Assembly: GCA_032718475.1 (NCBI GenBank)
Contig: JAUCBJ010006859.1
Coordinates: forward strand, 10,377 to 74,376
DNA from: Nemertoderma westbladi
Lineage: Eukaryota > Animalia > Xenacoelomorpha
Length of the DNA stretch: 64,000 nucleotides
Direction of reading: 5' to 3'
In this document: positions 2,269-43,579 of the stretch, one piece after another
Numbering within the stretch: position 1 is the first letter of the stretch
Layout of the letters: each line of letters starts with the position of its first letter
The notes under the pieces: generated by a model
What the model was told of the DNA's origin: nothing
Seen by the model: the letters and a program-made list of their open reading frames with translations, nothing else
Database searches by the model: none
Made by a program: the position numbers and the translations under genes

Positions 2269-2379
2269 CTGAAGAAATAAAGTATTATTATTAATTACGG
2301 TATTTGAAGCGAATCAGTGGTTTCACATTGCAACTTTCGTTGGGTCCAGTTGATCAAATACGAATGTTTGTACATTGGG

Positions 2380-2570
2380 GTTGATTATTATAGTCGCTGT
2401 AGATGATTGGTATTGGGCATTTAGAAGGCGATGAGGACGTAAATGGCAGGCATACAACGTAATAGGTCCGTCCACAATTTATGTGAGAAATTGTTAGAAC
2501 GCCAGACTTCGGACAACCCGGAGGTCACCACTCACCCAACTACTTTCCTTTCCCTTTCCCTTTCCTTTCT
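2380..2570 (+). mobile_element. Possible SINE/LINE 3' remnant with (CCTTT)n-like tail
   Basis: Core-like segment GATGAGGACGTAAATGG followed by a short pyrimidine repeat tail at about 2543-2570. No A/B boxes seen. Confidence 0.25.
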
Positions 2571-2657
2571 TAATGTTACGTCGTACTAATGCCAAAATGC
2601 GACTGCTCGCAGAAAATAATGTGTTACATATTAGACACATCAAAAACTAATAATTAG

Positions 2658-5600
2658 CTTACCTCCCGCTCCCCGATTCTCGTGTTGTTCTATGTAAATG
2701 CCTCCCTTACTTACCTCCGGCTCCCTGATTCTCGTGTTGTTCTATGTAAATGCCTCCCTTACTTACCTCCCGCTCCCCGATTCTCGTGTTGTTCTATGTA
2801 AATGCCTCCCTTACTTACCTCCCGCTCCCTGATTCTCGTGTTGTTCTATGTAAATGCCTCCCTTACTTACCTCCCGCTCCCTGATTCTCGTGTTGTTCTA
2901 TGTAAATGCCTCCCTTACTTACCTCCCGCTCCCTGATTCTCGTGTTGTTCTATGTAAATGCCTCCCTTACTTACCTCCCGCTCCCTGATTCTCGTGTTGT
3001 TCTATGTAAATGCCTCCCTTACTTACCTCCCGCACCCCGATTCTCGTGTTGTTCTATGTAAATGCCTCCCTTACTTACCTTCCGCTCCCTGATTCTCGTG
3101 TTGTTCTATGTAAATGCCTCCCTTACTTACCTCCTGCTCCCTGATTCTCGTGTTGTTCTATGTAAATGCCTCCCTTACTTACCTCCCGCTCCCTGATTCT
3201 CGTGTTGTTCTATGTAAATGCCTCCCTTACTTACCTCCCGCTCCCCGATTCTCGTGTTGTTCTATGTAAATGCCTCCCTTACTTACCTCCCGCTCCCTGA
3301 TTCTCGTGTTGTTCTATGTAAATGCCTCCCTTACTTACCTCCTGCTCCCTGATTCTCGTGTTGTTCTATGTAAATGCCTCCCTTACTTACCTCCCGCTCC
3401 CTGATTCTCGTGTTGTTCTATGTAAATGCCTCCCTTACTTACCTCCCGCTCCCTGATTCTCGTGTTGTTCTATGTAAATGCCTCCCTTACTTACCTCCTG
3501 CTCCCTGATTCTCGTGTTGTTCTATGTAAATGCCTCCCTTACTTACCTCCCGCTCCCTGATTCTCGTGTTGTTCTATGTAAATGCCTCCCTTACTTACCT
3601 CCCGCTCCCTGATTCTCGTGTTGTTCTATGTAAATGCCTCCCTTACTTACCTCCTGCTCCCTGATTCTCGTGTTGTTCTATGTAAATGCCTCCCTTACTT
3701 ACCTCCCGCTCCCTGATTCTCGTGTTGTTCTATGTAAATGCCTCCCTTACTTACCTCGCGCTCCCTGATTCTCGTGTTGTTCTATGTAAATGCCTCCCTT
3801 ACTTACCTCCTGCTCCCTGATTCTCGTGTTGTTCTATGTAAATGCCTCCCTTACTTACCTCCCGCTCCCCGATTCTCGTGTTGTTCTATGTAAATGCCTC
3901 CCTTACTTACCTCCCGCTCCCTGATTCTCGTGTTGTTCTATGTAAATGCCTCCCTTACTTACCTCCCGCTCCCTGATTCTCGTGTTGTTCTATGTAAATG
4001 CCTCCCTTACTTACCTCCCGCTCCCTGATTCTCGTGTTGTTCTATGTAAATGCCTCCCTTACTTACCTCCCGCTCCCCGATTCTCGTGTTGTTCTATGTA
4101 AATGCCTCCCTTACTTACCTCCCGCTCCCTGATTCTCGTGTTGTTCTATGTAAATGCCTCCCTTACTTACCTCCCGCTCCCTGATTCTCGTGTTGTTCTA
4201 TGTAAATGCCTCCCTTACTTACCTCCCGCTCCCCGATTCTCGTGTTGTTCTATGTAAATGCCTCCCTTACTTACCTCCCGCTCCCTGATTCTCGTGTTGT
4301 TCTATGTAAATGCCTCCCTTACTTACCTCCCGCTCCCTGATTCTCGTGTTGTTCTATGTAAATGCCTCCCTTACTTACCTCCCGCTCCCTGATTCTCGTG
4401 TTGTTCTATGTAAATGCCTCCCTTACTTATCTCCCGCTCCCTGATTCTCGTGTTGTTCTATGTAAATGCCTCCCTTACTTATCTCCCGCTCCCTGAGTCT
4501 CGTGTTGTTCTATGTAAATGCCTCCCTTACTTACCTCCCGCTCCCCGATTCTCGTGTTGTTCTATGTAAATGCCTCCCTTACTTACCTCCCGCTCCCTGA
4601 TCCTCGTGTTGTTCTATGTAAATGCCTCCCTTACTTACCTCCCGCTCCCTGATTCTCGTGTTGTTCTATGTAAATGCCTCCCTTACTTACCTCCCGCTCC
4701 CCGATTCTCGTGTTGTTCTATGTAAATGCCTCCCTTACTTACCTCCCGCTCCCTGATTCTCGTGTTGTTCTATGTAAATACCTCCCTTACTTACCTCCCG
4801 CTCCCTGATTCACGTGTTGTTCTATGTAAATGCCTCCCTTACTTACCTCCCGCTCCCTGATTCTCGTGTTGTTCTATGTAAATGCCTCCCTTACTTACCT
4901 CCCGCTCCCCGATTCTCGTGTTGTTCTATGTAAATGCCTCCCTTACTTACCTCCCGCTCCCTGATTCTCGTGTTGTTCTATGTAAATGCCTCCCTTACTT
5001 ACCTCCCGCTCCCTGATTCTCGTGTTGTTCTATGTAAATGCCTCCCTTACTTACCTCCCGCTCCCCGATTCTCGCGTTGTTCTATGTAAATGCCTCCCTT
5101 ACTTACCTCCCGCTCCCTGATTCTCGTGTTGTTCTATGTAAATACCTCCCTTACTTACCTCCCGCTCCCCGATTCTCGTGTTGTTCTATGTAAATGCCTC
5201 CCTTACTTACCTCCCGCTCCCTGATTCTCGTGTTGTTCTATGTAAATGCCTCCCTTACTTACCTCCCGCTCCCTGATTCTCGTGTTGTTCTATGTAAATG
5301 CCTCCCTTACTTACCTCCCGCTCCCTGATTCTCGTGTTGTTCTATGTAAATGACTCCACTTACCTCCCGCTCCCTGATTCTCGTGTTGTTCTATGTAAAT
5401 GCCTCCCTTACTTACCTCCCGCTCCCTGATTCTCGTGTTGTTCTATGTAAATGACTCCACTTACCTCCCGCTCCCTGATTCTCGTGTTGTTCTATGTAAA
5501 TGCCTCCCTTACTTACCCCCCGCTCCCTGATTCTCGTGTTGTTCTATGTAAATGCCTCCCATACTTACCCCCCGCTCCCTGATTCTCGTGTTGTTCTATG

Positions 5601-8600
5601 TAAATGCCTCCCTTACTTACCTCCCGCTCCCTGATTCTCGTGTTGTTCTATGTAAATGCCTCCCTTACTTACCTACCGCTCCCTGATTCTCGTGTTGTTC
5701 TATGTAAATGCCTCCCTTACTTACCTCCCGCTCCCTGATTCTCGTGTTGTTCTATGTAAATGCCTCCCATACTTACCTCCCGCTCCCTGATTCTCGTGTT
5801 GTTCTATGTAAATGCCTCCCTTACTTACCTCCCGCTCCCCGATTGTCGTGTTGTTCTATGTAAATGCCTCCCTTACTTACCTCCCGCTCCCCGATTCTCG
5901 TGTTGTTCTATGTAAATGCCTCCCTTACTTACCTCCCGCTCCCTGATTCTCGTGTTGTTCTATGTAAATGCCTCCCTTACTTACCTCCCGCTCCCTGATT
6001 CTCGTGTTGTTCTATGTAAATGCCTCCCTTACTTACCTCCCGCTCCCTGATTCTCGTGTTGTTCTATGTAAATGCCTCCCTTACTTACCTCCCGCTCCCC
6101 GATTCTCGTGTTGTTCTATGTAAATGCCTCCCTTACTTACCTCCCGCTCCCTGATTCTCGTGTTGTTCTATGTAAATGCCTCCCTTACTTACCTCCCGCT
6201 CCCTGATTCTCGTGTTGTTCTATGTAAATGCCTCCCATACTTACCTCCCGCTCCCTGATTCTCGTGTTGTTCTATGTAAATGCCTCCCTTACTTACCTCC
6301 CGCTCCCTGATTATCGTGTTGTTCTATGTAATTGCCTCCCTTACTTACCTCCCGCTCCCCGATTCTCGTGTTGTTCTATGTAAATGCCTCCCTTACTTAC
6401 CTCCCGCTCCCTGATTATCGTGTTGTTCTATGTAAATGCCTCCCTTACTTACCTCCCGCTCCCTGATTCTCGTGTTGTTCTATGTAAATGCCTCCCATAC
6501 TTACCTCCCGCTCCCTGATTCTCGTGTTGTTCTATGTAAATGCCTCCCTTACTTACCTCCTGCTCCCTGATTCTCGTGTTGTTCTATGTAAATGCCTCCC
6601 TTACTTACCTCCCGCTCCCCGATTCTCGTGTTGTTCTATGTAAATGCCTCCCTTACTTACCTCCCGCTCCCTGATTCTCGTGTTGTTCTATGTAAATGCC
6701 TCCCTTACTTACCTCCCGCTCCCTGATTCTCGTGTTGTTCTATGTAAATGCTTCCCTTACTTACCTCCCGCTCCCCGATTCTCGTGTTGTTCTATGTAAA
6801 TGCCTCCCTTACTTACCTCCCGCTCCCTGATTCTCGTGTTGTTCTATGTAAATGCTTCCCTTACTTACCTCCCGCTCCCCGATTCTCGTGTTGTTCTATG
6901 TAAATGCCTCCCTTACTTACCTCCCGCTCCCTGATTCTCGTGTTGTTCTATGTAAATGCTTCCCTTACTTACCTCCCGCTCCCCGATTCTCGTGTTGTTC
7001 TATGTAAATGCCTCCCTTACTTACCTCCCGCTCCCTGATTATCGTGTTGTTCTATGTAAATGCTTCCCTTACTTACCTCCCGCTCCCCGATTCTCGTGTT
7101 GTTCTATGTAAATGCCTCCCTTACTTACCTCCCGCTCCCTGATTCTCGTGTTGTTCTATGTAAATGCTTCCCTTACTTACCTCCCGCTCCCCGATTCTCG
7201 TGTTGTTCTATGTAAATGCCTCCCTTACTTACCTCCCGCTCCCTGATTATCGTGTTGTTCTATGTAATTGCCTCCCTTACTTACCTCCCGCTCCCCGATT
7301 CTCGTGTTGTTCTATGTAAATGCCTCCCTTACTTACCTCCCGCTCCCTGATTATCGTGTTGTTCTATGTAAATGCCTACCTTACTTACCTCCCGCTCCCC
7401 GATTCTCGTGTTGTTCTATGTAAATGCCTCCCTCACTTACCTCCCGCTCCCTGATTCTCGTGTTGTTCTATGTAAAGGCCTCCCATACTTACCTCCCGCT
7501 CCCTGATTCTCGTGTTGTTCTATGTAAATGCCTCCCTTACTTACCTCCCGCTCCCTGATTCTCGTGTTGTTCTATGTAAATGCCTCCCTTACTTACCTCC
7601 CGCTCCCTGATTATCGTGTTGTTCTATGTAATTGCCTCCCTTACTTACCTCCCGCTCCCTGATTCTCGTGTTGTTCTATGTAATTGCCTCCCTTACTTAC
7701 CTCCCGCTCCCCGATTCTCGTGTTGTTCTATGTAAATGCCTCCCTTACTTACCTCCCGCTCCCTGATTATCGTGTTGTTCTATGTAATTGCCTCCCTTAC
7801 TTACCTCCCGCTCCCTGATTCTCGTGTTGTTCTATGTAAATGCTTCCACTTACCTCCCGCTCCCCGATTCTCGTGTTGTTCTATGTAAATGCTTCCACTT
7901 ACCTCCCGCTCCCCGATTCTCGTGTTGTTCTATGTAAATGCCTCCCTTACTTACCTCCCGCTCCCTGATTATCGTGTTGTTCTATGTAATTGCCTCCCTT
8001 ACTTACCTCCCGCTCCCTGATTCTCGTGTTGTTCTATGTAAATGCTTCCACTTACCTCCCGCTCCCCGATTCTCGTGTTGTTCTATGTAAATGCTTCCAC
8101 TTACCTCCCGCTCCCCGATTCTCGTGTTGTTCTATGTAATTGCCTCCCTTACTTACCTCCCGCTCCCCGATTCTCGTGTTGTTCTATGTAATTGCCTCCC
8201 TTACTTACCTCCCGCTCCCCGATTCTCGTGTTGTTCTATGTAAATGCTTCCCTTACTTACCTCCCGCTCCCCGATTCTCGTGTTGTTCTATGTAAATGCC
8301 TCCCTTACTTACCTCCCGCTCCCTGATTCTCGTGTTGTTCTATGTAAATGCCTCCCTTACTTACCTCCCGCTCCCTGATTCTCGTGTTGTTCTATGTAAA
8401 TGCCTCCCTTACTTATCTCCCGCTCCCTGATTCTCGTGTTGTTCTATGTAAATGCCTCCCTTACTTATCTCCCGCTCCCTGAGTCTCGTGTTGTTCTATG
8501 TAAATGCCTCCCTTACTTACCTCCCGCTCCCCGATTCTCGTGTTGTTCTATGTAAATGCCTCCCTTACTTACCTCCCGCTCCCTGATCCTCGTGTTGTTC

Positions 8601-11600
8601 TATGTAAATGCCTCCCTTACTTACCTCCCGCTCCCTGATTCTCGTGTTGTTCTATGTAAATGCCTCCCTTACTTACCTCCCGCTCCCCGATTCTCGTGTT
8701 GTTCTATGTAAATGCCTCCCTTACTTACCTCCCGCTCCCTGATTCTCGTGTTGTTCTATGTAAATACCTCCCTTACTTACCTCCCGCTCCCTGATTCACG
8801 TGTTGTTCTATGTAAATGCCTCCCTTACTTACCTCCCGCTCCCTGATTCTCGTGTTGTTCTATGTAAATGCCTCCCTTACTTACCTCCCGCTCCCCGATT
8901 CTCGTGTTGTTCTATGTAAATGCCTCCCTTACTTACCTCCCGCTCCCTGATTCTCGTGTTGTTCTATGTAAATGCCTCCCTTACTTACCTCCCGCTCCCT
9001 GATTCTCGTGTTGTTCTATGTAAATGCCTCCCTTACTTACCTCCCGCTCCCCGATTCTCGTGTTGTTCTATGTAAATGCCTCCCTTACTTACCTCCCGCT
9101 CCCTGATTCTCGTGTTGTTCTATGTAAATACCTCCCTTACTTACCTCCCGCTCCCCGATTCTCGTGTTGTTCTATGTAAATGCCTCCCTTACTTACCTCC
9201 CGCTCCCTGATTCTCGTGTTGTTCTATGTAAATGCCTCCCTTACTTACCTCCCGCTCCCTGATTCTCGTGTTGTTCTATGTAAATGCCTCCCTTACTTAC
9301 CTCCCGCTCCCTGATTCTCGTGTTGTTCTATGTAAATGACTCCACTTACCTCCCGCTCCCTGATTCTCGTGTTGTTCTATGTAAATGCCTCCCTTACTTA
9401 CCTCCCGCTCCCTGATTCTCGTGTTGTTCTATGTAAATGACTCCACTTACCTCCCGCTCCCTGATTCTCGTGTTGTTCTATGTAAATGCCTCCCTTACTT
9501 ACCCCCCGCTCCCTGATTCTCGTGTTGTTCTATGTAAATGCCTCCCATACTTACCTCCCGCTCCCCGATTCTCGTGTTGTTCTATGTAAATGACTCCCTT
9601 ACTTACCTCCCGCTCCCTGATTCTCGTGTTGTTCTATGTAAATGACTCCACTTACCTCCCGCTCCCTGATTCTCGTGTTGTTCTATGTAAATGCCTCCCT
9701 TACTTACCTCCCGCTCCCCGATTCTCGTGTTGTTCTATGTAAATGACTCCCTTACTTACCTCCCGCTCCCTGATTCTCGTGTTGTTCTATGTAAATGACT
9801 CCACTTACCTCCCGCTCCCTGATTCTCGTGTTGTTCTATGTAAATGCCTCCCTTACTTACCTCCCGCTCCCTGATTCTCGTGTTGTTCTATGTAAATGAC
9901 TCCACTTACCTCCCGCTCCCTGATTCTCGTGTTGTTCTATGTAAATGCCTCCCTTACTTACCTCCCGCTCCCCGATTCTCGTGTTGTTCTATGTAAATGC
10001 CTCCCTTACTTACCTCCCGCTCCCTGATTCTCGTGTTGTTCTATGTAAATGCCTCCCTTACTTACCTCCTGCTCCCTGATTCTCGTGTTGTTCTATGTAA
10101 ATGCCTCCCTTACTTACCCCCCGCTCCCTGATTCTCGTGTTGTTCTATGTAAATGCCTCCCTTACTTACCTCCCGCTCCCTGATTCTCGTGTTGTTCTAT
10201 GTAAATGCCTACCTTACTTACCTCCCGCTCCCCGATTCTCGTGTTGTTCTATGTAAATGCCTCCCTTACTTACCTCCCGCTCCCTGATTCTCGTGTTGTT
10301 CTATGTAAATGCCTACCTTACTTACCTCCCGCTCCCCGATTCTCGTGTTGTTCTATGTAAATGCCTCCCTTACTTACCCCCCGCTCCCTGATTCTCGTGT
10401 TGTTCTATGTAAATGCCTCCCTTACTTACCTCCCGCTCCCTGATTCTCGTGTTGTTCTATGTAAATGCCTCCCTTACTTACCTCCCGCTCCCTGATTCTC
10501 GTGTTGTTCTATGTAAATGCCTACCTTACTTACCTCCCGCTCCCCGATTCTCGTGTTGTTCTATGTAAATGCCTCCCTTACTTACCTCCCGCTCCCTGAT
10601 TCTCGTGTTGTTCTATGTAAATGCCTCCCTTACTTACCTCCCGCTCCCTGATTCTCGTGTTGTTCTATGTAAATGCCTCCCTTACTTACCCCCCGCTCCC
10701 TGATTCTCGTGTTGTTCTATGTAAATGCCTCCCTTACTTACCTCCCGCTCCCTGATTCTCGTGTTGTTCTATGTAAATGCCTCCCTTACTTACCTCCCGC
10801 TCCCTGATTCTCGTGTTGTTCTATGTAAATGCCTCCCTTACTTACCTCCCGCTCCCCGATTCTCGTGTTGTTCTATGTAAATGCCTCCCTTACTTACCTC
10901 CCGCTCCCTGATTCTCGTGTTGTTCTATGTAAATGCCTCCCTTACTTACCTCCCGCTCCCCGATTCTCGTGTTGTTCTATGTAATTGCCTCCCTTACTTA
11001 CCTCCCGCTCCCCGATTCTCGTGTTGTTCTATGTAAATGCCTCCCTTACTTACCTCCCGCTCCCTGATTATCGTGTTGTTCTATGTAATTGCCTCCCTTA
11101 CTTACCTCCCGCTCCCTGATTCTCGTGTTGTTCTATGTAATTGCCTCCCTTACTTACCTCCCGCTCCCCGATTCTCGTGTTGTTCTATGTAAATGCCTCC
11201 CTTACTTACCTCCCGCTCCCCGATTCTCGTGTTGTTCTATGTAAATGCCTCCCTTACTTACCTCCCGCTCCCTGATTATCGTGTTGTTCTATGTAATTGC
11301 CTCCCTTACTTACCTCCCGCTCCCCGATTCTCGTGTTGTTCTATGTAAATGCCTCCCTTACTTACCTCCCGCTCCCTGATTATCGTGTTGTTCTATGTAA
11401 TTGCCTCCCTTACTTACCTCCCGCTCCCTGATTCTCGTGTTGTTCTATGTAATTGCCTCCCTTACTTACCTCCCGCTCCCCGATTCTCGTGTTGTTCTAT
11501 GTAATTGCCTCCCTTACTTACCTCCCGCTCCCCGATTCTCGTGTTGTTCTATGTAAATGCTTCCCTTACTTACCTCCCGCTCCCCGATTCTCGTGTTGTT

Positions 11601-14600
11601 CTATGTAAATGCCTCCCTTACTTACCTCCCGCTCCCTGATTCTCGTGTTGTTCTATGTAAATGCCTCCCTTACTTACCACCCGCTCCCTGATTCTCGTGT
11701 TGTTCTATGTAAATGCCTCCCTTACTTACCTCCCGCTCCCTGATTCTCGTGTTGTTCTATGTAAATGCCTCCCTTACTTACCTCCCGCTCCCTGATTCTC
11801 GTGTTGTTCTATGTAAATGCCTCCCTTACTTACCTCCCGCTCCCTGATTCTCGTGTTGTTCTATGTAAATGCCTCCCTTACTTACCTCCCGCTCCCCGAT
11901 TCTCGTGTTGTTCTATGTAAATGCCTCCCTTACTTACCTCCCGCTCCCCGATTCTCGTGTTGTTCTATGTAAATGCCTCCCTTACTTACCTCCCGCTCCC
12001 TGATTCTCGTGTTGTTCTATGTAAATGCCTCCCTTACTTACCTCCCGCTCCCTGATTCTCGTGTTGTTCTATGTAAATGCCTCCCTTACTTACCTCCCGC
12101 TCCCTGATTCTCGTGTTGTTCTATGTAAATGCCTCCCTTACTTACCTTCCGCTCCCTGATTCTCGTGTTGTTCTATGTAAATGCCTCCCTTACTTACCTC
12201 CTGCTCCCTGATTCTCGTGTTGTTCTATGTAAATGCCTCCCTTACTTACCTCCCGCTCCCTGATTCTCGTGTTGTTCTATGTAAATGCCTCCCTTACTTA
12301 CCTCCCGCTCCCCGATTCTCGTGTTGTTCTATGTAAATGCCTCCCTTACTTACCTCCCGCTCCCTGATTCTCGTGTTGTTCTATGTAAATGCCTCCCTTA
12401 CTTACCTCCTGCTCCCTGATTCTCGTGTTGTTCTATGTAAATGCCTCCCTTACTTACCTCCCGCTCCCGCTCCCTGATTCTCGTGTTGTTCTATGTAAAT
12501 GCCTCCCTTACTTACCTCCCGCTCCCTGATTCTCGTGTTGTTCTATGTAAATGCCTCCCTTACTTACCTCCTGCTCCCTGATTCTCGTGTTGTTCTATGT
12601 AAATGCCTCCCTTACTTACCTCCCGCTCCCTGATTCTCGTGTTGTTCTATGTAAATGCCTCCCTTACTTACCTCCCGCTCCCTGATTCTCGTGTTGTTCT
12701 ATGTAAATGCCTCCCTTACTTACCTCCTGCTCCCTGATTCTCGTGTTGTTCTATGTAAATGCCTCCCTTACTTACCTCCCGCTCCCTGATTCTCGTGTTG
12801 TTCTATGTAAATGCCTCCCTTACTTACCTCGCGCTCCCTGATTCTCGTGTTGTTCTATGTAAATGCCTCCCTTACTTACCTCCTGCTCCCTGATTCTCGT
12901 GTTGTTCTATGTAAATGCCTCCCTTACTTACCTCCCGCTCCCCGATTCTCGTGTTGTTCTATGTAAATGCCTCCCTTACTTACCTCCCGCTCCCTGATTC
13001 TCGTGTTGTTCTATGTAAATGCCTCCCTTACTTACCTCCCGCTCCCTGATTCTCGTGTTGTTCTATGTAAATGCCTCCCTTACTTACCTCCCGTTCCCCG
13101 ATTCTCGTGTTGTTCTATGTAAATGCCCCCCTTACTTACCTCCCGCTCCCCGATTCTCGTGTTGTTCTATGTAAATGCCTCCACTTACCTCCCGCTCCCC
13201 GATTCTCGTGTTGTTCTATGTAAATGCCTCCCTTACTTAACTCCCGCTCCCCGATTCTAGTGTTGTTCTATGTAAATGCCTCCCTTACTTACCTCCCGCT
13301 CCCCGATTCTCGTGTTGTTCTATGTAAATGCCTCCCTTACTTACCTCCCGTTCCCCGATTCTCGTGTTGTTCTATGTAAATGCCCCCCTTACTTACCTCC
13401 CGCTCCCCGATTCTCGTGTTGTTCTATGTAAATGCCTCCACTTACCTCCCGCTCCCCGATTCTCGTGTTGTTCTATGTAAATGCCTCCCTTACTTACCTC
13501 CCGCTCCCCGATTCTCGTGTTGTTCTATGTAAATGCCTCCACTTACCTCCCGCTCCCCGATTCTCGTGTTGTTCTATGTAAATGCCTCCCTTACTTCCTC
13601 CCGCTCCCTGATTCTCGTGTTGTTCTATGTAAATGCCTCCCTTACTTACCTCCCGCTCCCCGATTCTCGTGTTGTTCTATGTAAATGCCTCCCTTACTTA
13701 CCTCCCGCTCCCTGATTCTCGTGTTGTTCTATGTAAATGCCTCCCTTACTTACCTCCCGCTCCCTGATTCTCGTGTTGTTCTATGTAAATGCCTCCCTTA
13801 CTTACCTCCCGCTCCCTGATTCTCGTGTTGTTCTATGTAAATGACTCCACTTACCTCCCGCTCCCTGATTCTCGTGTTGTTCTATGTAAATGCCTCCCTT
13901 ACTTACCTCCCGCTCCCTGATTCTCGTGTTGTTCTATGTAAATGACTCCACTTACCTCCCGCTCCCTGATTCTCGTGTTGTTCTATGTAAATGCCTCCCT
14001 TACTTACCCCCCTCTCCCTGATTCTCGTGTTGTTCTATGTAAATGCCTCCCATACTTACCTCCCGCTCCCCGATTCTCGTGTTGTTCTATGTAAATGACT
14101 CCCTTACTTACCTCCCGCTCCCTGATTCTCGTGTTGTTCTATGTAAATGACTCCACTTACCTCCCGCTCCCTGATTCTCGTGTTGTTCTATGTAAATGCC
14201 TCCCTTACTTACCTCCCGCTCCCCGATTCTCGTGTTGTTCTATGTAAATGACTCCCTTACTTACCTCCCGCTCCCTGATTCTCGTGTTGTTCTATGTAAA
14301 TGACTCCACTTACCTCCCGCTCCCTGATTCTCGTGTTGTTCTATGTAAATGCCTCCCTTACTTACCTCCCGCTCCCTGATTCTCGTGTTGTTCTATGTAA
14401 ATGACTCCACTTACCTCCCGCTCCCTGATTCTCGTGTTGTTCTATGTAAATGCCTCCCTTACTTACCTCCCGCTCCCCGATTCTCGTGTTGTTCTATGTA
14501 AATGCCTCCCTTACTTACCTCCCGCTCCCTGATTCTCGTGTTGTTCTATGTAAATGCCTCCCTTACTTACCTCCTGCTCCCTGATTCTCGTGTTGTTCTA

Positions 14601-26600: not shown

Positions 26601-29600
26601 TACTTACCTCCCGCTCCCCGATTCTCGTGTTGTTCTATGTAAATGCCTCCCTTACTTACCTCCCGCTCCCTGATTCTCGTGTTGTTCTATGTAAATGCCT
26701 CCCTTACTTACCTCCCGCTCCCTGATTCTCGTGTTGTTCTATGTAAATGCCTCCCTTACTTACCTCCCGCTCCCTGATTCTCGTGTTGTTCTATGTAAAT
26801 GCCTCCCTTACTTACCTCCCGCTCCCCGATTCTCGTGTTGTTCTATGTAAATGCCTCCCTTACTTACCTCCCGCTCCCTGATTCTCGTGTTGTTCTATGT
26901 AAATGCCTCCCTTACTTACCTCCCGCTCCCTGATTCTCGTGTTGTTCTATGTAAATGCCTCCCTTACTTACCTCCCGCTCCCTGATTCTCGTGTTGTTCT
27001 ATGTAAATGCCTCCCTTACTTACCTCCCGCTCCCCGATTCTCGTGTTGTTCTATGTAAATGCCTCCCTTACTTACCTCCCGCTCCCCGATTCTCGTGTTG
27101 TTCTATGTAAATGCCTCCCTTACTTACCTCCCGCTCCCTGATTCTCGTGTTGTTCTATGTAAATGCCTCCCTTACTTACCTCCCGCTCCCTGATTCTCGT
27201 GTTGTTCTATGTAAATGCCTCCCTTACTTACCTCCCGCTCCCTGATTCTCGTGTTGTTCTATGTAAATGCCTCCCTTACTTACCTCCCGCTCCCTGATTC
27301 TCGTGTTGTTCTATGTAAATGCCTCCCTTACTTACCTCCCGCTCCCCGATTCTCGTGTTGTTCTATGTAAATGCCTCCCTTACTTACCTCCCGCTCCCTG
27401 ATTCTCGTGTTGTTCTATGTAAATGCCTCCCTTACTTACCTCCCGCTCCCTGATTCTCGTGTTGTTCTATGTAAATGCCTCCCTTACTTACCTCCCGCTC
27501 CCCGATTCTCGTGTTGTTCTATGTAAATGCCTCCCTTACTTACCTCCCGCTCCCTGATTCTCGTGTTGTTCTATGTAAATGCCTCCCTTACTTACCTCCC
27601 GCTCCCTGATTCTCGTGTTGTTCTATGTAAATGCCTCCCTTACTTACCTCCCGCTCCCTGATTCTCGTGTTGTTCTATGTAAATGCCTCCCTTACTTATC
27701 TCCCGCTCCCTGATTCTCGTGTTGTTCTATGTAAATGCCTCCCTTACTTATCTCCCGCTCCCTGAGTCTCGTGTTGTTCTATGTAAATGCCTCCCTTACT
27801 TACCTCCCGCTCCCCGATTCTCGTGTTGTTCTATGTAAATGCCTCCCTTACTTACCTCCCGCTCCCTGATTCCTCGTGTTGTTCTATGTAAATGCCTCCC
27901 TTACTTACCTCCCGCTCCCTGATTCTCGTGTTGTTCTATGTAAATGCCTCCCTTACTTACCTCCCGCTCCCTGATTCTCGTGTTGTTCTATGTAAATACC
28001 TCCCTTACTTACCTCCCGCTCCCTGATTCACGTGTTGTTCTATGTAAATGCCTCCCTTACTTACCTCCCGCTCCCTGATTCTCGTGTTGTTCTATGTAAA
28101 TGCCTCCCTTACTTACCTCCCGCTCCCCGATTCTCGTGTTGTTCTATGTAAATGCCTCCCTTACTTACCTCCCGCTCCCTGATTCTCGTGTTGTTCTATG
28201 TAAATGCCTCCCTTACTTACCTCCCGCTCCCTGATTCTCGTGTTGTTCTATGTAAATGCCTCCCTTACTTACCTCCCGCTCCCCGATTCTCGTGTTGTTC
28301 TATGTAAATGCCTCCCTTACTTACCTCCCGCTCCCTGATTCTCGTGTTGTTCTATGTAAATACCTCCCTTACTTACCTCCCGCTCCCCGATTCTCGTGTT
28401 GTTCTATGTAAATGCCTCCCATACTTACCTCCCGCTCCCTGATTCTCGTGTTGTTCTATGTAAATGCCTCCCTTACTTACCTCCCGCTCCCTGATTCTCG
28501 TGTTGTTCTATGTAAATGCCTCCCTTACTTACCTCCCGCTCCCTGATTCTCGTGTTGTTCTATGTAAATGACTCCACTTACCTCCCGCTCCCTGATTCTC
28601 GTGTTGTTCTATGTAAATGCCTCCCTTACTTACCTCCCGCTCCCTGATTCTCGTGTTGTTCTATGTAAATGACTCCACTTACCTCCCGCTCCCTGATTCT
28701 CGTGTTGTTCTATGTAAATGCCTCCCTTACTTACGCCCCGCTCCCTGATTCTCGTGTTGTTCTATGTAAATGCCTCCCATACTTACCCCCCGCTCCCTGA
28801 TTCTCGTGTTGTTCTATGTAAATGCCTCCCTTACTTACCTCCCGCTCCCTGATTCTCGTGTTGTTCTATGTAAATGCCTCCCTTACTTACCTCCCGCTCC
28901 CTGATTCTCGTGTTGTTCTATGTAAATGCCTCCCTTACTTACCTCCCGCTCCCTGATTCTCGTGTTGTTCTATGTAAATGCCTCCCATACTTACCTCCCG
29001 CTCCCTGATTCTCGTGTTGTTCTATGTAAATGCCTCCCTTACTTACCTCCCGCTCCCCGATTGTCGTGTTGTTCTATGTAAATGCCTCCCTTACTTACCT
29101 CCCGCTCCCCGATTCTCGTGTTGTTCTATGTAAATGCCTCCCTTACTTACCTCCCGCTCCCTGATTCTCGTGTTGTTCTATGTAAATGCCTCCCTTACTT
29201 ACCTCCCGCTCCCTGATTCTCGTGTTGTTCTATGTAAATGCCTCCCTTACTTACCTCCCGCTCCCTGATTCTCGTGTTGTTCTATGTAAATGCCTCCCTT
29301 ACTTACCTCCCGCTCCCCGATTCTCGTGTTGTTCTATGTAAATGCCTCCCTTACTTACCTCCCGCTCCCTGATTCTCGTGTTGTTCTATGTAAATGCCTC
29401 CCTTACTTACCTCCCGCTCCCTGATTCTCGTGTTGTTCTATGTAAATGCCTCCCATACTTACCTCCCGCTCCCTGATTCTCGTGTTGTTCTATGTAAATG
29501 CCTCCCTTACTTACCTCCCGCTCCCTGATTATCGTGTTGTTCTATGTAATTGCCTCCCTTACTTACCTCCCGCTCCCCGATTCTCGTGTTGTTCTATGTA

Positions 29601-32600
29601 AATGCCTCCCTTACTTACCTCCCGCTCCCTGATTATCGTGTTGTTCTATGTAAATGCCTACCTTACTTACCTCCCGCTCCCCGATTCTCGTGTTGTTCTA
29701 TGTAAATGCCTCCCTTACTTACCTCCCGCTCCCTGATTCTCGTGTTGTTCTATGTAAATGCCTCCCTTACTTACCTCCCGCTCCCTGATTATCGTGTTGT
29801 TCTATGTAATTGCCTCCCTTACTTACCTCCCGCTCCCTGATTCTCGTGTTGTTCTATGTAATTGCCTCCCTTACTTACCTCCCGCTCCCCGATTCTCGTG
29901 TTGTTCTATGTAATTGCCTCCCTTACTTACCTCCCGCTCCCCGATTCTCGTGTTGTTCTATGTAAATGCTTCCCTTACTTACCTCCCGCTCCCCGATTCT
30001 CGTGTTGTTCTATGTAAATGCCTCCCTTACTTACCTCCCGCTCCCTGATTCTCGTGTTGTTCTATGTAAATGCCTCCCTTACTTACCTCCCGCTCCCTGA
30101 TTCTCGTGTTGTTCTATGTAAATGCCTCCCTTACTTACCTCCCGCTCCCTGATTCTCGTGTTGTTCTATGTAAATGCCTCCCTTACTTACCTCCCGCTCC
30201 CTGATTCTCGTGTTGTTCTATGTAAATGCCTCCCTTACTTACCTCCCGCTCCCTGATTCTCGTGTTGTTCTATGTAAATGCCTCCCTTACTTACCTCCCG
30301 CTCCCCGATTCTCGTGTTGTTCTATGTAAATGCCTCCCTTACTTACCTCCCGCTCCCCGATTCTCGTGTTGTTCTATGTAAATGCCTCCCTTACTTACCT
30401 CCCGCTCCCTGATTCTCGTGTTGTTCTATGTAAATGCCTCCCTTACTTACCTCCCGCTCCCTGATTCTCGTGTTGTTCTATGTAAATGCCTCCCTTACTT
30501 ACCTCCCGCTCCCTGATTCTCGTGTTGTTCTATGTAAATGCCTCCCTTACTTACCTCCCGCTCCCTGATTCTCGTGTTGTTCTATGTAAATGCCTCCCTT
30601 ACTTACCTCCCGCTCCCCGATTCTCGTGTTGTTCTATGTAAATGCCTCCCTTACTTACCTCCCGCTCCCTGATTCTCGTGTTGTTCTATGTAAATGCCTC
30701 CCTTACTTACCTCCCGCTCCCTGATTCTCGTGTTGTTCTATGTAAATGCCTCCCTTACTTACCTCCCGCTCCCCGATTCTCGTGTTGTTCTATGTAAATG
30801 CCTCCCTTACTTACCTCCCGCTCCCTGATTCTCGTGTTGTTCTATGTAAATGCCTCCCTTACTTACCTCCCGCTCCCTGATTCTCGTGTTGTTCTATGTA
30901 AATGCCTCCCTTACTTACCTCCCGCTCCCTGATTCTCGTGTTGTTCTATGTAAATGCCTCCCTTACTTATCTCCCGCTCCCTGATTCTCGTGTTGTTCTA
31001 TGTAAATGCCTCCCTTACTTATCTCCCGCTCCCTGAGTCTCGTGTTGTTCTATGTAAATGCCTCCTTACTTACCTCCCGCTCCCCGATTCTCGTGTTGTT
31101 CTATGTAAATGCCTCCCTTACTTACCTCCCGCTCCCTGATCCTCGTGTTGTTCTATGTAAATGCCTCCCTTACTTACCTCCCGCTCCCTGATTCTCGTGT
31201 TGTTCTATGTAAATGCCTCCCTTACTTACCTCCCGCTCCCCGATTCTCGTGTTGTTCTATGTAAATGCCTCCCTTACTTACCTCCCGCTCCCTGATTCTC
31301 GTGTTGTTCTATGTAAATACCTCCCTTACTTACCTCCCGCTCCCTGATTCTCGTGTTGTTCTATGTAAATACCTCCCTTACTTACCTCCCGCTCCCTGAT
31401 TCTCGTGTTGTTCTATGTAAATGCCTCCCTTACTTACCTCCCGCTCCCTGATTCTCGTGTTGTTCTATGTAAATGCCTCCCTTACTTACCTCCCGCTCCC
31501 TGATTCTCGTGTTGTTCTATGTAAATACCTCCCTTACTTACCTCCCGCTCCCTGATTATCGTGTTGTTCTATGTAAATACCTCCCTTACTTACCTCCCGC
31601 TCCCTGATTCTCGTGTTGTTCTATGTAAATGCCTCCCTTACTTACCTCCCGCTCCCCGATTCTCGTGTTGTTCTATGTAAATGCCTCCCTTACTTACCTC
31701 CCGCTCCCTGATTCTCGTGTTGTTCTATGTAAATACCTCCCTTACTTACCTCCAGCTCCCTGATTCTCGTGTTGTTCTATGTAAATACCTCCCTTACTTA
31801 CCTCCCGCTCCCTGATTCTCGTGTTGTTCTATGTAAATGCCTCCCTTACTTACCTCCCGCTCCCTGATTCTCGTGTTGTTCTATGTAAATGCCTCCCTTA
31901 CTTACCTCCCGCTCCCCGATTCTCGTGTTGTTCTATGTAAATGCCTCCCTTACTTACCTCCCGCTCCCTGATTCTCGTGTTGTTCTATGTAAATGCCTCC
32001 CTTACTTACCTCCCGCTCCCTGATTCTCGCGTTGTTCTATGTAAATGCCTCCCTTACTTACCTCCCGCTCCCCGATTCTCGTGTTGTTCTATGTAAATGC
32101 CTCCCTTACTTACCTCCCGCTCCCTGATTCTCGTGTTGTTCTATGTAAATACCTCCCTTACTTACCTCCCGCTCCCCGATTCTCGTGTTGTTCTATGTAA
32201 ATGCCTCCCTTACTTACCTCCCGCTCCCTGATTCTCGTGTTGTTTTATGTAAATGCCTCCCTTACTTACCTCCCGCTCCCTGATTCTCGTGTTGTTCTAT
32301 GTAAATGCCTCCCTTACTTACCTCCCGCTCCCTGATTCTCGTGTTGTTCTATGTAAATGACTCCACTTACCTCTCGCTCCCTGATTCTCGTGTTGTTCTA
32401 TGTAAATGCCTCCCTTAATTACCTCCCGCTCCCTGATTCTCGTGTTGTTCTATGTAAATGACTCCACTTACCTCCCGCTCCCTGATTCTCGTGTTGTTCT
32501 ATGTAAATGCCTCCCTTACTTACCCCCCGCTCCCTGATTCTCGTGTTGTTCTATGTAAATGCCTCCCATACTTACCTCCCGCTCCCCGATTCTCGTGTTG

Positions 32601-35600
32601 TTCTATGTAAATGACTCCCTTACTTACCTCCCGCTCCCTGATTCTCGTGTTGTTCTATGTAAATGACTCCACTTACCTCCCGCTCCCTGATTCTCGTGTT
32701 GTTCTATGTAAATGCCTCCCTTACTTACCTCCCGCTCCCTGATTCTCGTGTTGTTCTATGTAAATGCCTCCCTTACTTACCTCCCGCTCCCCGATTCTCG
32801 TGTTGTTCTATGTAAATGCCTCCCTTACTTACCTCCCGCTCCCCGATTCTCGTGTTGTTCTATGTAAATGCCTCCCTTACTTACCTCCCGCTCCCTGATT
32901 CTCGTGTTGTTCTATGTAAATGCCTCCCTTACTTACCTCCCGCTCCCTGATTCTCGTGTTGTTCTATGTAAATGCCTCCCTTACTTACCTCCCGCTCCCC
33001 GATTCTCGTGTTGTTCTATGTAAATGCCTCCCTTACTTACCTCCCGCTCCCTGATTCTCGTGTTGTTCTATGTAAATGCCTCCCTTACTTACCTCCCGCT
33101 CCCTGATTCTCGTGTTGTTCTATGTAAATGCCTCCCTTACTCCCGCTCCCTGATTCTCGTGTTGTTCTATGTAAATGCCTCCCTTACTTATCTCCCGCTC
33201 CCTGATTCTCGTGTTGTTCTATGTAAATGCCTCCCTTACTTATCTCCCGCTCCCTGAGTCTCGTGTTGTTCTATGTAAATGCCTCCCTTACTTACCTCCC
33301 GCTCCCCGATTCTCGTGTTGTTCTATGTAAATGCCTCCCTTACTTACCTCCCGCTCCCTGATTCTCGTGTTGTTCTATGTAAATGCCTCCCTTACTTACC
33401 TCCCGCTCCCTGATTCTCGTGTTGTTCTATGTAAATGCCTCCCTTACTTACCTCCCGCTCCCCGATTCTCGTGTTGTTCTATGTAAATGCCTCCCTTACT
33501 TACCTCCCGCTCCCTGATTCTCGTGTTGTTCTATGTAAATACCTCCCTTACTTACCTCCCGCTCCCCGATTCTCGTGTTGTTCTATGTAAATGCCTCCCT
33601 TACTTACCTCCCGCTCCCTGATTCTCGTGTTGTTCTATGTAAATGCCTCCCTTACTTACCTCCCGCTCCCTGATTCTCGTGTTGTTCTATGTAAATGCCT
33701 CCCTTACTTACCTCCCGCTCCCTGATTCTCGTGTTGTTCTATGTAAATGACTCCACTTACCTCCCGCTCCCTGATTCTCGTGTTGTTCTATGTAAATGCC
33801 TCCCTTACTTACCTTCCGCTCCCTGATTCTCGTGTTGTTCTATGTAAATGACTCCACTTACCTCCCGCTCCCTGATTCTCGTGTTGTTCTATGTAAATGC
33901 CTCCCTTACTTACCCCCCGCTCCCTGATTCTCGTGTTGTTCTATGTAAATGCCTCCCATACTTACCTCCCGCTCCCCGATTCTCGTGTTGTTCTATGTAA
34001 ATAACTCCCTTACTTACCTCCCGCTCCCTGATTCTCGTGTTGTTCTATGTAAATGACTCCACTTACCTCCCGCTCCCTGATTCTCGTGTTGTTCTATGTA
34101 AATGCCTCCCTTACTTACCTCCCGCTCCCCGATTCTCGTGTTGTTCTATGTAAATGACTCCCTTACTTACCTCCCGCTCCCTGATTCTCGTGTTGTTCTA
34201 TGTAAATGACTCCACTTACCTCCCGCTCCCTGATTCTCGTGTTGTTCTATGTAAATGCCTCCCTTACTTACCTCCCGCTCCCTGATTCTCGTGTTGTTCT
34301 ATGTAAATGACTCCACTTACCTCCCGCTCCCTGATTCTCGTGTTGTTCTATGTAAATGCCTCCCTTACTTACCTCCCGCTCCCCGATTCTCGTGTTGTTC
34401 TATGTAAATGCCTCCCTTACTTACCTCCCGCTCCCTGATTCTCGTGTTGTTCTATGTAAATGCCTCCCTTACTTACCTCCTGCTCCCTGATTCTCGTGTT
34501 GTTCTATGTAAATGCCTCCCTTACTTACCCCCCGCTCCCTGATTCTCGTGTTGTTCTATGTAAATGCCTCCCTTACTTACCTCCCGCTCCCTGATTCTCG
34601 TGTTGTTCTATGTAAATGCCTCCCTTACTTACCTCCCGCTCCCTGATTCTCGTGTTGTTCTATGTAAATGCCTCCCTTACTTAACTCCCGCTCCCTGATT
34701 CTCGTGTTGTTCTATGTAAATGCCTCCCATACTTACCTCCCGCTCCCTGATTCTCGTGTTGTTCTATGTAAATGCCTCCCATACTTACCTCCCGCTCCCT
34801 GATTCACGTGTTGTTCTATGTAAATGCCTCCCATACTTACCTCCCGCTCCCTGATTCTCGTGTTGTTCTATGTAAATGCCTCCCTTACTTACCCCCCGCT
34901 CCCTGATTCTCGTGTTGTTCTATGTAAATGCCTCCACTTACCTCCCGCTCCCTGATTCTCGTGTTGTTCTATGTAAATGCCTCCCATACTTACCTCCCGC
35001 TCCCTGATTCTCGTGTTGTTCTATGTAAATGCCTCCCTTACTTACCCCCCGCTCCCTGATTCTCGTGTTGTTCTATGTAAATGCCTCCCATACTTACCTC
35101 CCGCTCCCTGATTCTCGTGTTGTTCTATGAAAATGCCTCCCATACTTACCTCCCGCTCCCTGATTCACGTGTTGTTCTATGTAAATGCCTCCCATACTTA
35201 CCTCCCGCTCCCAGATTCTCGTGTTGTTCTATGTAAATGCCTCCCATACTTACCTCCCGCTCCCTGATTCTCGTGTTGTTCTATGTAAATGCCTCCCTTA
35301 CTTACCCCCCGCTCCCTGATTCTCGTGTTGTTCTATGTAAATGCCTCCACTTACCTCCCGCTCCCTGATTCTCGTGTTGTTCTATGTAAATGCCTCCACT
35401 TACCTCCCGCTCCCTGATTCTCGTGTTGTTCTATGTAAAGGCCTCCCATACTTACCTCCCGCTCCCTGATTCTCGTGTTGTTCTATGTAAATGCCTCCCT
35501 TACTTACCCCCCGCTCCCTGATTCTCGTGTTGTTCTATGTAAATGCCTCCCATACTTACCTCCCGCTCCCTGATTCTCGTGTTGTTCTATGTAAATGCCT

Positions 35601-38600
35601 CCCTTACTTACCCCCCGCTCCCTGATTCTCGTGTTGTTCTATGTAAATGCCTCCCATACTTACCTCCCGCTCCCTGATTCTCGTGTTGTTCTATGTAAAT
35701 GCCTCCCTTACTTACCTCCCGCTCCCTGATTCTCGTGTTGTTCTATGTAAATGCCTCCCTTACTTACCTCCCGCTCCCTGATTCTCGTGTTGTTCTATGT
35801 AAATGCCTCCCTTACTTACCTACCGCTCCCCGATTCTCGTGTTGTTCTATGTAAATGCCTCCCTTACTTACCTCCCGCTCCCTGATTCTCGTGTTGTTCT
35901 ATGTAAATGCCTCCCTTACTTACCTCCCGCTCCCTGATTCTCGTGTTGTTCTATGTAAATGCCTCCCTTACTTACCTCCCGCTCCCTGATTCTCGTGTTG
36001 TTCTATGTAAATGCCTCTCTTACTTACCTCCCGCTCCCCGATTCTCGTGTTGCTCTATGTAAATGCCTCCCATACTTACCTCCCGCTCCCTGATTCACGT
36101 GTTGTTCTATGTAAATGCCTCCCATACTTACCTCCCGCTCCCTGATTCTCGTGTTGTTCTATATAAATGCCTCCCTTACTTACCTCCCGCTCCCTGATTC
36201 TCGTGTTGTTCTATGTAAATGCCTCCACTTACCTCCCGCTCCCTGATTCTCGTGTTGTTCTATGTAAATGCCTCCCTTACTTACCCCCCGCTCACTGATT
36301 CTCGTGTTGTTCTATGTAAATGCCTCCCTTACTTACCTCCCGCTCCCTGATTCTCGTGTTGTTCTATGTAAATGCCTCCTTTACTTACCTCCCGCTCCCT
36401 GATTCTCGTGTTGTTCTATGTAAATGCCTCCCTTACTTACCTCCCGCTCCCCGATTCTCGTGTTGTTCTATGTAAATGCCTCCCTTACTTACCTCCCGCT
36501 CCCCGATTCTCGTGTTGTTCTATGTAAATGCCTCCCTTACTTACCTCCCGCTCCCTGATTCTCGTGTTGTTCTATGTAAATGCCTCCCTTACTTACCTCC
36601 CGCTCCCCGATTCTCGTGTTGTTCTATGTAAATGCCTCCCTTACTTACCTCCCGCTCCCTGATTCTCGTGTTGTTCTATGTAAATGCCTCCCTTACTTAC
36701 CTCCCGCTCCCTGATTCTCGTGTTGTTCTATGTAAATGCCTCCCTTACTTACCTCCCGCTCCCCGATTCTCGTGTTGTTCTATGTAAATGCCTCCCTTAC
36801 TTACCTCCCGCTCCCTGATTCTCGTGTTGTTCTATGTAAATGACTCCACTTACCTCCCGCTCCCTGATTCTCGTGTTGTTCTATGTAAATGCCTCCACTT
36901 ACCTCCCGCTCCCTGATTCTCGTGTTGTTCTATGTAAATGCCTCCACTTACCTTCCGCTCCCTGATTCTCGTGTTGTTCTATGTAAATGCCTCCACTTAC
37001 CTCCCGCTCCCCGATTCTCGTGTTGTTCTATGTAAATGCCTCCCTTACTTACCTCCCGCTCCCTGATTCTCGTGTTGTTCTATGTAAATGACTCCCTTAC
37101 TTACCTCCCGCTCACTGATTCTCGTGTTGTTCTATGTAAATGCCTCCACTTACCTCCCGCTCCCTGATTCTCGTGTTGTTCTATGTAAATGCCTCCCTTA
37201 CTTATCTCTCGCTCCCTGATTCTCGTGTTGTTCTATGTAAATGCCTCCCTTACTTACCTCCCGCTCCCCGATTCTCGTGTTGTTCTATGTAAATGCCTCC
37301 CTTACTTACCTCCCGCTCACTGATTCTCGTGTTGTTCTATGTAAATGCCTCCCTTACTTACCTCCCGCTCCCCGATTCTCGTGTTGTTCTATGTAAATGC
37401 CTCCCTTACTTACCTCCCGCTCCCCGATTCTCGTGTTGTTCTATGTAAATGCCTCCCTTACTTACCTCCCGCTCCCTGATTCTCGTGTTGTTCTATGTAA
37501 ATGCCTCCCTTACTTACCTCCCGCTCCCCGATTCTCGTGTTGTTCTATGTAAATGCCTCCCTTACTTACCTCCCGCTCCCTGATTCTCGTGTTGTTCTAT
37601 GTAAATGCCTCCCTTACTTACCTCCCGTTCCCTGATTCTCGTGTTGTTCTATGTAAATGCCTCCCTTACTTACCTCCCGCTCCCTGATTCTCGTGTTGTT
37701 CTATGTAAATGCCTCCCTTACTTACCTCCCGCTCCCCGATTCTCGTGTTGTTCTATGTAAATGACTCCACTTACCTCCCGCTCCCCGATTCTCGTGTTGT
37801 TCTATGTAAATGACTCCACTTACATCCCGCTCCCTGATTCTCGTGTTGTTCTATGTAAATGCCTCCACTTACCTCCCGCTCCCTGATTCTCGTGTTGTTC
37901 TATGTAAATGCCTCCCTTACTTACCTCCCGCACCCCGATTCTCGTGTTGTTCTATGTAAATACCTCCCTTACTTATCTCCCGCTCCCTGATTCTCGTGTT
38001 GTTCTATGTAAATGCCTCCCTTACTTACCTCCCGCTCCCTGATTCTCGTGTTGTTCTATGTAAATGCCTCCCTTACTTACCTCCCGCTCCCCGATTCTCG
38101 TGTTGTTCTATGTAAATGCCTCCACTTACCTCCCGCTCCCTGATTCTCGTGTTGTTCTATGTAAATGCCTCCCTTACTTACCTCCCGCTCCCCGATTCTC
38201 GTGTTGTTCTATGTAAATGACTCCACTTACCTCCCGCACCCCGATTCTCGTGTTGTTCTATGTAAATGCCTCCCTTACTTACCTCCCGCTCCCTGATTCT
38301 CGTGTTGTTCTATGTAAATGCCTCCCTTACTTACCTCCCGCTCACTGATTCTCGTGTTGTTCTATGTAAATGACTCCACTTACCTCCCGCACCCCGATTC
38401 TCGTGTTGTTCTATGTAAATGACTCCCTTACTTACCTCCCGCTCCCCGATTCTCGTGTTGTTCTATGTAAATGCCTCCCTTACTTACCTCCCGCTCCCTG
38501 ATTCTCGTGTTGTTCTATGTAAATGCCTCCCTTACTTGCCTCCCGCTCCCTGATTCTCGTGTTGTTCTATGTAAATGCCTCCCTTACTTACCTCCCGCTC

Positions 38601-38856
38601 CCTGATTCTCGTGTTGTTCTATGTAAATGCCTCCCTTACTTACCTCCCGCTCCCTGATTCTCGTGTTGTTCTATGTAATTGCCTCCCTTACTTACCTCCC
38701 GCTCCCTGATTCTCGTGTTGTTCTATGTAAATGCCTCCCTTACTTACCTCCCGCTCCCCGATTCTCGTGTTGTTCTATGTAAATGCCTCCCTTACTTACC
38801 TCCCGCTCCCTGATTCTCGTGTTGTTCTATGTAAATGCTTCCCTTACTTACCTCCC
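2658..38856. repeat. About 36.2-kb tandem array (about 700 copies) of a 52-bp unit filling the last EFL1 intron
   Basis: Plus-strand unit CTTACCTCCCGCTCCC(T/C)GATTCTCGTGTTGTTCTATGTAAATGCCTCCCTTA, very homogeneous, with 49-bp (3-nt deletion) and 58-bp (CTCCCG duplication) variants. Copy number estimated as length/52. Confidence 0.99.
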
Positions 38857-39036
38857 AATGCGTAAATTCAAGTTGAGGATTCGCTAATCCACTAGTCCGT
38901 TTTCTTATTTCGTCAGCGAAACCTAAACTTTCTGCAACGGGTAATATTGCAGATATATTGAATATAGAAGACCCCTCCAGCATCGTGTCGCTAAGGATAC
39001 GCCCTTGGCGCTTGTTCAATACAGCGTAGAGTTTAC
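38852..39036 (-). CDS. EFL1: EFL1 penultimate coding exon
   Basis: tctttAG|GT AAA... encodes (G)[61 protein letters not shown], then |GTAAGT. EF-G domain V, with phases compatible with both neighbouring exons. Confidence 0.95.
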
Positions 39037-40077: not shown

Positions 40078-40121
<44 letters not shown>

Positions 40122-43521: not shown

Positions 43522-43579
43522 TACAATTTACTAATATTACTATTTATAATATTACTAATATACTATTTACTATTTATAC

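Follow-up and report, generated by a model that had tools for sequence, protein, structure and literature searches.

EFL1 and the Array in Its Last Intron

The window, i.e., the whole stretch of 64,000 nucleotides of Nemertoderma westbladi DNA analyzed here, carries the last three exons of EFL1 on its minus strand. EFL1 is an essential gene, needed for 60S maturation. The three exons (39580–39412, 39036–38852, and 2268–2080) form an open EFL1 C-terminus of 180 codons, out of about 1,120 in the whole protein. Nearly all the named matches listed are EFL1, at 61–81% identity, and an EFG_C domain was found. The N-terminal GTPase and domains II–IV are absent from the window, and searches with 32 homologues (tblastn) and with an HMM found no further EFL1 exon on 39,600–64,000. 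This interval holds a whole STT3-family gene on the opposite strand and a Pao-type retroelement, and the STT3 gene is probably nested in an EFL1 intron longer than 24 kb. One further candidate, a possible upstream exon near 42,324, was set aside because it had no homologue support and the wrong phase. EFL1 from N. westbladi itself was not found among 38 and 279 protein candidates.

The sequencing runs compared with the window are called X1 to X5. X1 and X3 are DNA runs; X4 and X5 are taken as cDNA-type from their coverage, which is confined to exons and stops or joins at splice sites, and no run is recorded as RNA. X5 was compared with the acceptor side only and X2 with the donor side only. 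The features of the locus, in the order of EFL1 transcription and with a slash for the exon–intron boundary, are the following.

39412..39580, minus strand: first of the three EFL1 exons, 169 nt (homology; 375-nt CT..AC skip in X4)
38852..39036, minus strand: penultimate EFL1 exon, 185 nt, with the EFG_C domain; its last 5 nt begin unit 1 of the array (homology; spliced X4 contig)
38844..38854, minus strand: authentic 5' splice site, donor 1, GAG/GTAAGTAA (X4 contig match ends at 38852; its loose end at the acceptor consists of exon letters)
2658..38856, minus strand: array of 699 tandem units, most of them 52 nt long, followed by a 10-nt tail (TRF and unit decomposition)
2655..2665, minus strand: last donor-like site, GAG/GTAAGC, where the terminal 10-nt repeat ends (predicted U1 pairing of -9.6 kcal/mol)
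2269..2657, minus strand: unique 3' segment of the intron, which holds a pyrimidine tract and the CAG acceptor (present in the DNA runs X1 and X3; in X4 and X5 the depth over 2295–2644 is zero)
2080..2268, minus strand: last EFL1 coding exon with the stop codon (homology; transcript contigs extend to about 1870)

The array fills 36,199 of the 36,583 nt of the last EFL1 intron. TRF describes it as a repeat of period 52 with 699.2 copies and 96% matches, and decomposition of the minus strand gave 699 units and a tail of 10 nt with the same letters as the first 10 nt of the array, which bears out the original prediction of about 700 tandem donor copies in a 36-kb intron. Unit length is 52 nt in 627 of the 699 units, 49 nt in 61, and another value in 11. 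Each unit spans positions -5 to +47 of the last-intron donor, and unit 1 overlaps the authentic exon–intron boundary at 38852/38851. The units are arranged head-to-tail, are of minisatellite size, and reiterate the donor, so the array is a donor-spanning minisatellite. The 85 distinct unit types (44 of them singletons) form a mosaic of recurring blocks, the mean pairwise divergence between units is 2.5%, and the longest exact duplicate covers 34 units, or 1,765 bp; given this mosaic and the limited length of exact duplication, the array looks like a naturally evolved minisatellite and not an artefact of reads.

The intron is older than the array, since other animals have ORFs that read through or into it at this place (P0001, P0002, and P0029 read through at donor 1), and its position is shared with them. 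Of six exonic differences among the matches listed, four leave the protein unchanged and the other two are E>D and V>A, a pattern that suggests EFL1 exons under constraint.

Donor Copies and the Products of Internal Splicing

The donor motif AG/GTAAGT is intact in 653 of the 699 units, and 643 units are identical to donor 1 over positions -3 to +6. Outside the array, AGGTAAGT occurs only three times in 27,801 bp, counting both strands, and donor repetition within it is therefore far beyond chance. Predicted U1 pairing is -12.3 kcal/mol for donor 1 and equal to that in 556 of the 699 units; it is weaker for the last donor-like site (-9.6 kcal/mol) and poor for the shifted GT at +5 (-5.0 kcal/mol). 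Three units have a predicted folding energy of just -9.9 kcal/mol, whether or not G-quadruplexes are allowed for, so the donors are not hidden by structure. Acceptor-like AGs were not found within the array, nor was a single AATAAA or ATTAAA; donors are thus in large excess over acceptors and poly(A) signals are missing, the sequence pattern of LL2R-type RNAs. The internal donors are under no visible selection and are conserved no better than the rest of the unit, since substitutions are not depleted at donor positions (10 of 47 distinct substitution alleles hit the 9 donor positions among 52; binomial p=0.44, Mann-Whitney p=0.86) and the GT is lost in 23 of the 699 units.

Frame consequences were computed for the 12 first and three last donor-like sites, and they agree with what had been predicted: only donor 1 yields full EFL1, donor 2 adds 52 nt and shifts the frame, and donor 3 and later ones place a stop inside unit 2. 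The stop that follows the use of donor 2 lies 14 nt into the last exon, that of donor 3 (+104) lies 44 nt before the last junction, and from donor 4 onward the distance to that junction is at least 96 nt. By the 50–55-nt rule, NMD targets mRNAs whose stop lies farther than that before the last junction. The +52 and +104 products would escape it, because their stops sit in the last exon or within that limit, and an NMD-inhibition test scored on the +52 isoform, as had been suggested, would accordingly target the wrong isoform.

These distances bear on the suggestion that the array is a dosage control, i.e., a selected device in which regulated internal donors send EFL1 mRNA to NMD. Products from donor 4 onward would qualify as NMD targets. 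However, the likely leak sites are donors 2 and 3, judging by the IFI6 and CBS precedents in the available text that cites them (cited in PMC1557585), and the stops that these two give evade the rule; the donor positions are not conserved among units, and an allele free of the array exists (see below). The reasoning also assumes that NMD in this animal depends on exon junctions. We consider such a device very improbable, and this part of the original prediction was not supported.

A second suggestion was stepwise intron removal, in which internal AG/GT sites would act as zero-length-exon ratchet points that regenerate the donor. A ratchet point is defined by a pyrimidine tract and a YAG immediately 5' of an internal donor. 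In the 653 units with an intact motif, AG directly precedes GTAAGT, so splicing there would rebuild the same donor, and the repeat-only lariats expected from such a route would fit the repeat-rich pattern of run X5 described below. The sequence upstream of the internal sites speaks against it: they read GAG, preceded by 24% pyrimidines and 6% T, versus 71–76% pyrimidines and 47–71% T at the three real EFL1 acceptors. None of the eight AGs per unit has an upstream pyrimidine share above 47%, four branch-type motifs that were tested are absent from the array, and the array as a whole is 73% purine. An intron of 36 kb can, moreover, be removed without a stepwise route. There is hardly any probability left, in our estimate, for recursive removal at this locus.

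Alleles and Transcripts

Support for the array in DNA comes from X1, whose contigs lead from unique sequence on either side into the unit (at 38840 and at 2673) and whose depth gives at least 73–144 units per single copy, a summed contig depth that was used for bounds only and with 31-letter words assumed. The last letters of these contigs fall at unit positions +12 and +42, a hint of two versions of the junction, from a short allele or a second array. The array is not bridged by any read or contig, the window itself may derive from X1, and the length of the array is that of the assembly. One could therefore imagine that the assembly is wrong about its length or placement, or that the three exons are an orphan 3' fragment; the stretch 39,600–64,000, with a whole STT3 gene on the other strand and no EFL1 similarity, would be in keeping with the latter. 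An artefact is unlikely because exact duplication ends at 1,765 bp, below 1.8 kb, within a mosaic of 85 unit types, and because X1 contigs enter the unit from both flanks; the depth bound points the same way. The EFL1 fragment is probably no orphan either, since the spliced X4 contig carries 1,846 extra nt on the 5' side of the most upstream exon in the window and the DNA runs X1 and X3, compared at 80% likeness, hold each exon in a single version. Taken together, error or orphan status is quite improbable. The same data answer the concern that this copy might be silent beside a functional paralogue: EFL1 is transcribed, and no paralogue was seen over the three exons in the two DNA runs compared (2/2).

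The array is not present on every chromosome. In DNA run X3, one 1,133-nt contig among the matches listed joins both flanking exons, with letters 1–375 corresponding to 39182–38795 and letters 344–1133 to 2689–1900. Its intron measures about 433 nt, versus 36,583 nt in the window, so that the intron is polymorphic in length; about 12 nt separate the exon end from unit position +26, leaving one shortened unit. Contig depth is 14.5, the same as the single-copy flanks (11–14.5), and we read this contig as a real array-free allele because a passage through high-copy words would not keep single-copy depth. It differs from the window at 11 of 375 letters and at 5 of 473. Other alleles may have junction contigs beyond the matches listed. 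X3 also holds the unit at summed depths of 8,889 and 11,924, on the other chromosome or elsewhere, and the short allele may thus be heterozygous. The short allele is either ancestral or a deletion from the array. Because unit divergence (2.5%) is similar to the allelic differences between X3 and the window, and because block duplications reach 34 units, the expansion is likely to be young on the scale of the species itself. An array-free allele, and a pattern that belongs to a class already described (in the available text of PMC1557585 and PMC3087553), also count against the idea that the locus needs special machinery.

Which donor is used was read from the cDNA-type runs. The X4 contig, of 2,601 nt, covers 39582–39410, skips 375 nt (CT..AC), covers 39034–38852, and continues at 2270–1870, and the loose end at the acceptor consists of exon letters; it joins donor 1 to the acceptor at 2268, and both the exon end at 38852/38851 and this acceptor had been placed correctly. 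The X5 contig matches the window as far as 2270 and has another 225 nt unmatched beyond, which by position fits donor 1 joined to the same acceptor. Two observations define whose splicing this is. At both array ends the depth of the unit in X4 is zero, so its animal may lack the array, and the contig of X5 has letters other than those of the window at 1939, 1942, 1952, and 1985, all in the 3' UTR, where X1, with the same sample label, is identical to the window. Donor-1 use therefore holds for the EFL1 gene, as X4 lacks the unit and the X5 contig is not of the window haplotype, and it would extend to the array-bearing allele by inference. Assembled contigs drop rare isoforms, and leakage to donors 2 and 3 would be missed in them. 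The original prediction had offered strict donor choice or stepwise removal as alternatives; the X4 contig agrees with choice of the most upstream donor, and the composition upstream of the internal GAG (24% pyrimidines) counts against the other.

The reading that we prefer, with a probability of roughly 0.7, is that this is a real 699-unit minisatellite beside an array-free allele, likely young and near-neutral, and tolerated as the spliceosome likely takes the most upstream donor. A direct repeat of 10 nt, with one copy at -5 to +5 and the other a few dozen bases into the old intron, would have seeded slippage, and it is the terminal repeat of the array that suggests slippage as the first duplication; unequal exchange would then have enlarged the array block by block. 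Donor 1 would be defined across the 185-nt exon and, being transcribed first, would be committed before later copies compete, with the intron leaving in one step. Leakage would go mostly to donors 2 and 3 and give C-terminally truncated EFL1 that largely escapes NMD. The three G-triplets in each unit perhaps help donor 1, a speculative step: when hnRNP F/H sites follow each of two competing donors, the distal donor is favoured in vitro and U1 occupancy changes little, in the part of the report available (PMC1326234), but the step is weakened by the human F7 study, which, in its available text, saw no role for neighbouring intronic elements (PMC1557585).

One set of observations sits uneasily with plain neutral splicing. 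In X5, probably cDNA, the unit reaches a summed depth of 235,973, while the last exon has 9.39 and the unique 3' segment of the intron has none. With an interspersed repeat nearby as reference, the X5 unit is about 660-fold above X1, a conservative overlap bound gives at least about 810 unit-equivalents per exon contig, and DNA carry-over predicts only about 360 of the 235,973. Plain neutral splicing does not account for this excess. The array allele might, then, be a hypomorph or an RNA scaffold, whose U1-loaded transcripts stall or accumulate while mature EFL1 drops, possibly with a body of splicing factors like that of LL2R. That the spliced X5 contig is not of the window haplotype would be in line with this, as would the donor density of the array, 36 per 2 kb versus more than 5 per 2 kb in the snRNP-recruiting LL2R, a figure from the accessible part of that report (bioRxiv 10.64898/2026.03.19.712899). 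The U1 landing array suggested in the original prediction would thus have a precedent in LL2R and a single hint in X5. X5 is, however, one small run whose library type and strand are not on record, and depth summed over contigs reflects expression poorly. X1 and X2 come from the same sample, yet their unit-to-single-copy ratios (2,270 and 74) lie about 30-fold apart, a sign of large library bias. The unit transcripts may stem from other loci, the haplotype of a contig at depth 9 may be chance, and the sample may mix several animals. We regard a hypomorph or scaffold as unlikely, and slightly less likely again the specific proposal that a segregating array with about 650 intact donors makes U1-saturated RNA that piles up at the gene, cuts the mRNA of that allele, and builds a nuclear body, which the 0.4-kb allele does not.

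Relation to Known Donor Arrays

In the open-access literature, we found no exon-spanning array with hundreds of copies and no report of a tandem repeat or satellite in an EFL1 intron. Smaller arrays of the same kind are well documented. One is the 37-bp VNTR in intron 7 of human F7, where, in the available text of the study, only the most upstream of 5–9 identical donors is used and the next one takes over once it is mutated (PMC1557585). As in EFL1, the first unit spans the exon end (by 4 nt in F7 and 5 nt in EFL1), identical pseudo-donors follow downstream, and the array is polymorphic; the differences are copy number (5–9 versus 699), the array-free allele, of which the available text on F7 makes no mention, and the kind of evidence, as F7 was tested experimentally and EFL1 is known from sequence and contigs. 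The same source, in the part available, lists minisatellites with 10–26 copies that reiterate a donor in IFI6 (6-16), CBS intron 13, lamin B2, and PDGF; donor 1 alone is used in lamin B2 and PDGF, while 6-16 and CBS use donor 1 and the two nearest copies (cited in PMC1557585). In copy number the EFL1 array exceeds the largest (26) of these published exon-spanning cases about 27-fold, as far as that list extends.

Among invertebrates, the 'mirage' repeats of amphioxus Adh3 and globin genes are likewise tandem duplications of exon–intron boundaries that are length-unstable between haplotypes, and regular splicing was not disturbed there, according to the accessible text (PMC3087553). They are far smaller in copy number, with three and six units in the BflGb6 haplotypes, have units of 150–160 bp (10–72 bp in Adh3), and may lie on the donor or the acceptor side, to judge by the same portion of that report (PMC3087553). 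The 30-mer repeat of human CACNA1C resembles the EFL1 array in being intronic, 3 to more than 30 kb long, grown from a single copy, polymorphic, and endowed with a splice consensus in its unit; in the available text it is not described as a copy of the donor of its own exon, it has enhancer activity, and all 362 human alleles tested are expanded (bioRxiv 10.1101/311795). The giant introns of the Drosophila Y chromosome are also enlarged by tandem repeats, but they reach megabase scale and are not described as donor copies in the parts of the reports available (PMC6508621, PMC11207136).

At the level of RNA, there is a likeness to the chicken LL2R 'lumpy loop' transcript, which, as far as its accessible text describes, is also a tandem repeat RNA rich in donors and poor in acceptors and poly(A) signals (bioRxiv 10.64898/2026.03.19.712899). 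LL2R differs in having a non-coding unit, a retrotransposon promoter, and snRNP recruitment that was imaged, whereas the EFL1 array is the intron of a coding gene and known from sequence, again by the accessible text for LL2R (bioRxiv 10.64898/2026.03.19.712899). If the excess of repeat RNA in X5 is real and comes from the EFL1 intron, it would link arrays of this kind to RNAs that recruit snRNPs in the manner of LL2R; should the excess stem from the library, the locus is a known oddity on a large scale. Should the U1-saturated reading prove true, the two alleles would form a natural test of donor choice and of the trapping of a transcript by donor density alone.

The class to which the EFL1 array belongs is thus already known, and what is new is its size, its essential host gene, and the array-free allele. 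Donor choice among identical copies has so far been studied on arrays of 5–26 copies, and about 650 are intact here. With the two alleles side by side, one could measure what an 84-fold longer, donor-saturated intron costs and see how first-come donor choice fares at its limit.

Sequence differences in EFL1

The window was compared with contigs assembled from four sequencing runs (X1–X4), and at window position 39477, within EFL1, it encodes Val where all four runs encode Ala; the Val may belong to an allele private to the window or be an error in its assembly. The array-free short allele of EFL1, a 1,133-nt contig assembled from the DNA run X3, differs from the window at 11 of 375 letters on its 5' side (39182-38795) and at only 2 of 790 on its 3' side (2689-1900). 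From sequence comparison, this imbalance may be the mark of recombination at the array of splice-donor copies in the last EFL1 intron, or may reflect a mosaic contig.

A probably nested gene and open frames, some of retroelement type

Upstream of the three EFL1 exons and antisense to them lies a whole STT3-family gene, whose first intron holds one of the open frames listed below.

42939-46905 (+): STT3-family oligosaccharyltransferase gene, whole (Pfam STT3)
43476-44474 (+): 333-codon open frame holding the last part of a reverse transcriptase domain (RVT_1, weak match)
60257-64000 (-): Pao/BEL-type pol frames (Pfam Peptidase_A17, integrase zinc domain, DUF5641)
55787-59563 (-): 1,259-codon open frame following the Pao/BEL-type pol, with Cys-rich knuckle-like motifs and no Pfam match

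Searches up to position 64,000, using tblastn with 32 homologues and an HMM, found no EFL1 exon beyond those three, and the STT3-family gene probably sits inside an EFL1 intron longer than 24 kb. The intronic 333-codon frame is probably a 5'-truncated LINE, and the Pao/BEL-type pol carries an in-frame 21-nt repeat (62064-62226).

Interspersed and tandem repeats

Two interspersed repeats of very high copy number, one of which is contained in the EFL1 3' UTR, accompany a C run and three minisatellites additional to the EFL1 array.

39720-39925: interspersed repeat (summed depth 10^5 in DNA runs)
1870-2030: interspersed repeat (summed depth 10^5 in DNA runs)
40078-40146: almost pure C run, 69 nt
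48067-50019: minisatellite, 32-nt unit
50940-52049: minisatellite, 30-nt unit
52150-52590: minisatellite, 63-nt unit

The stretch holding the C run has, by eye, inverted-repeat-like ends (about 40,250-40,350 and 41,150-41,250) and is perhaps a non-autonomous transposon. The minisatellites, with 94-98% matches, are young; all three fall within 5 kb, which suggests a region, or a genome, prone to tandem expansion.
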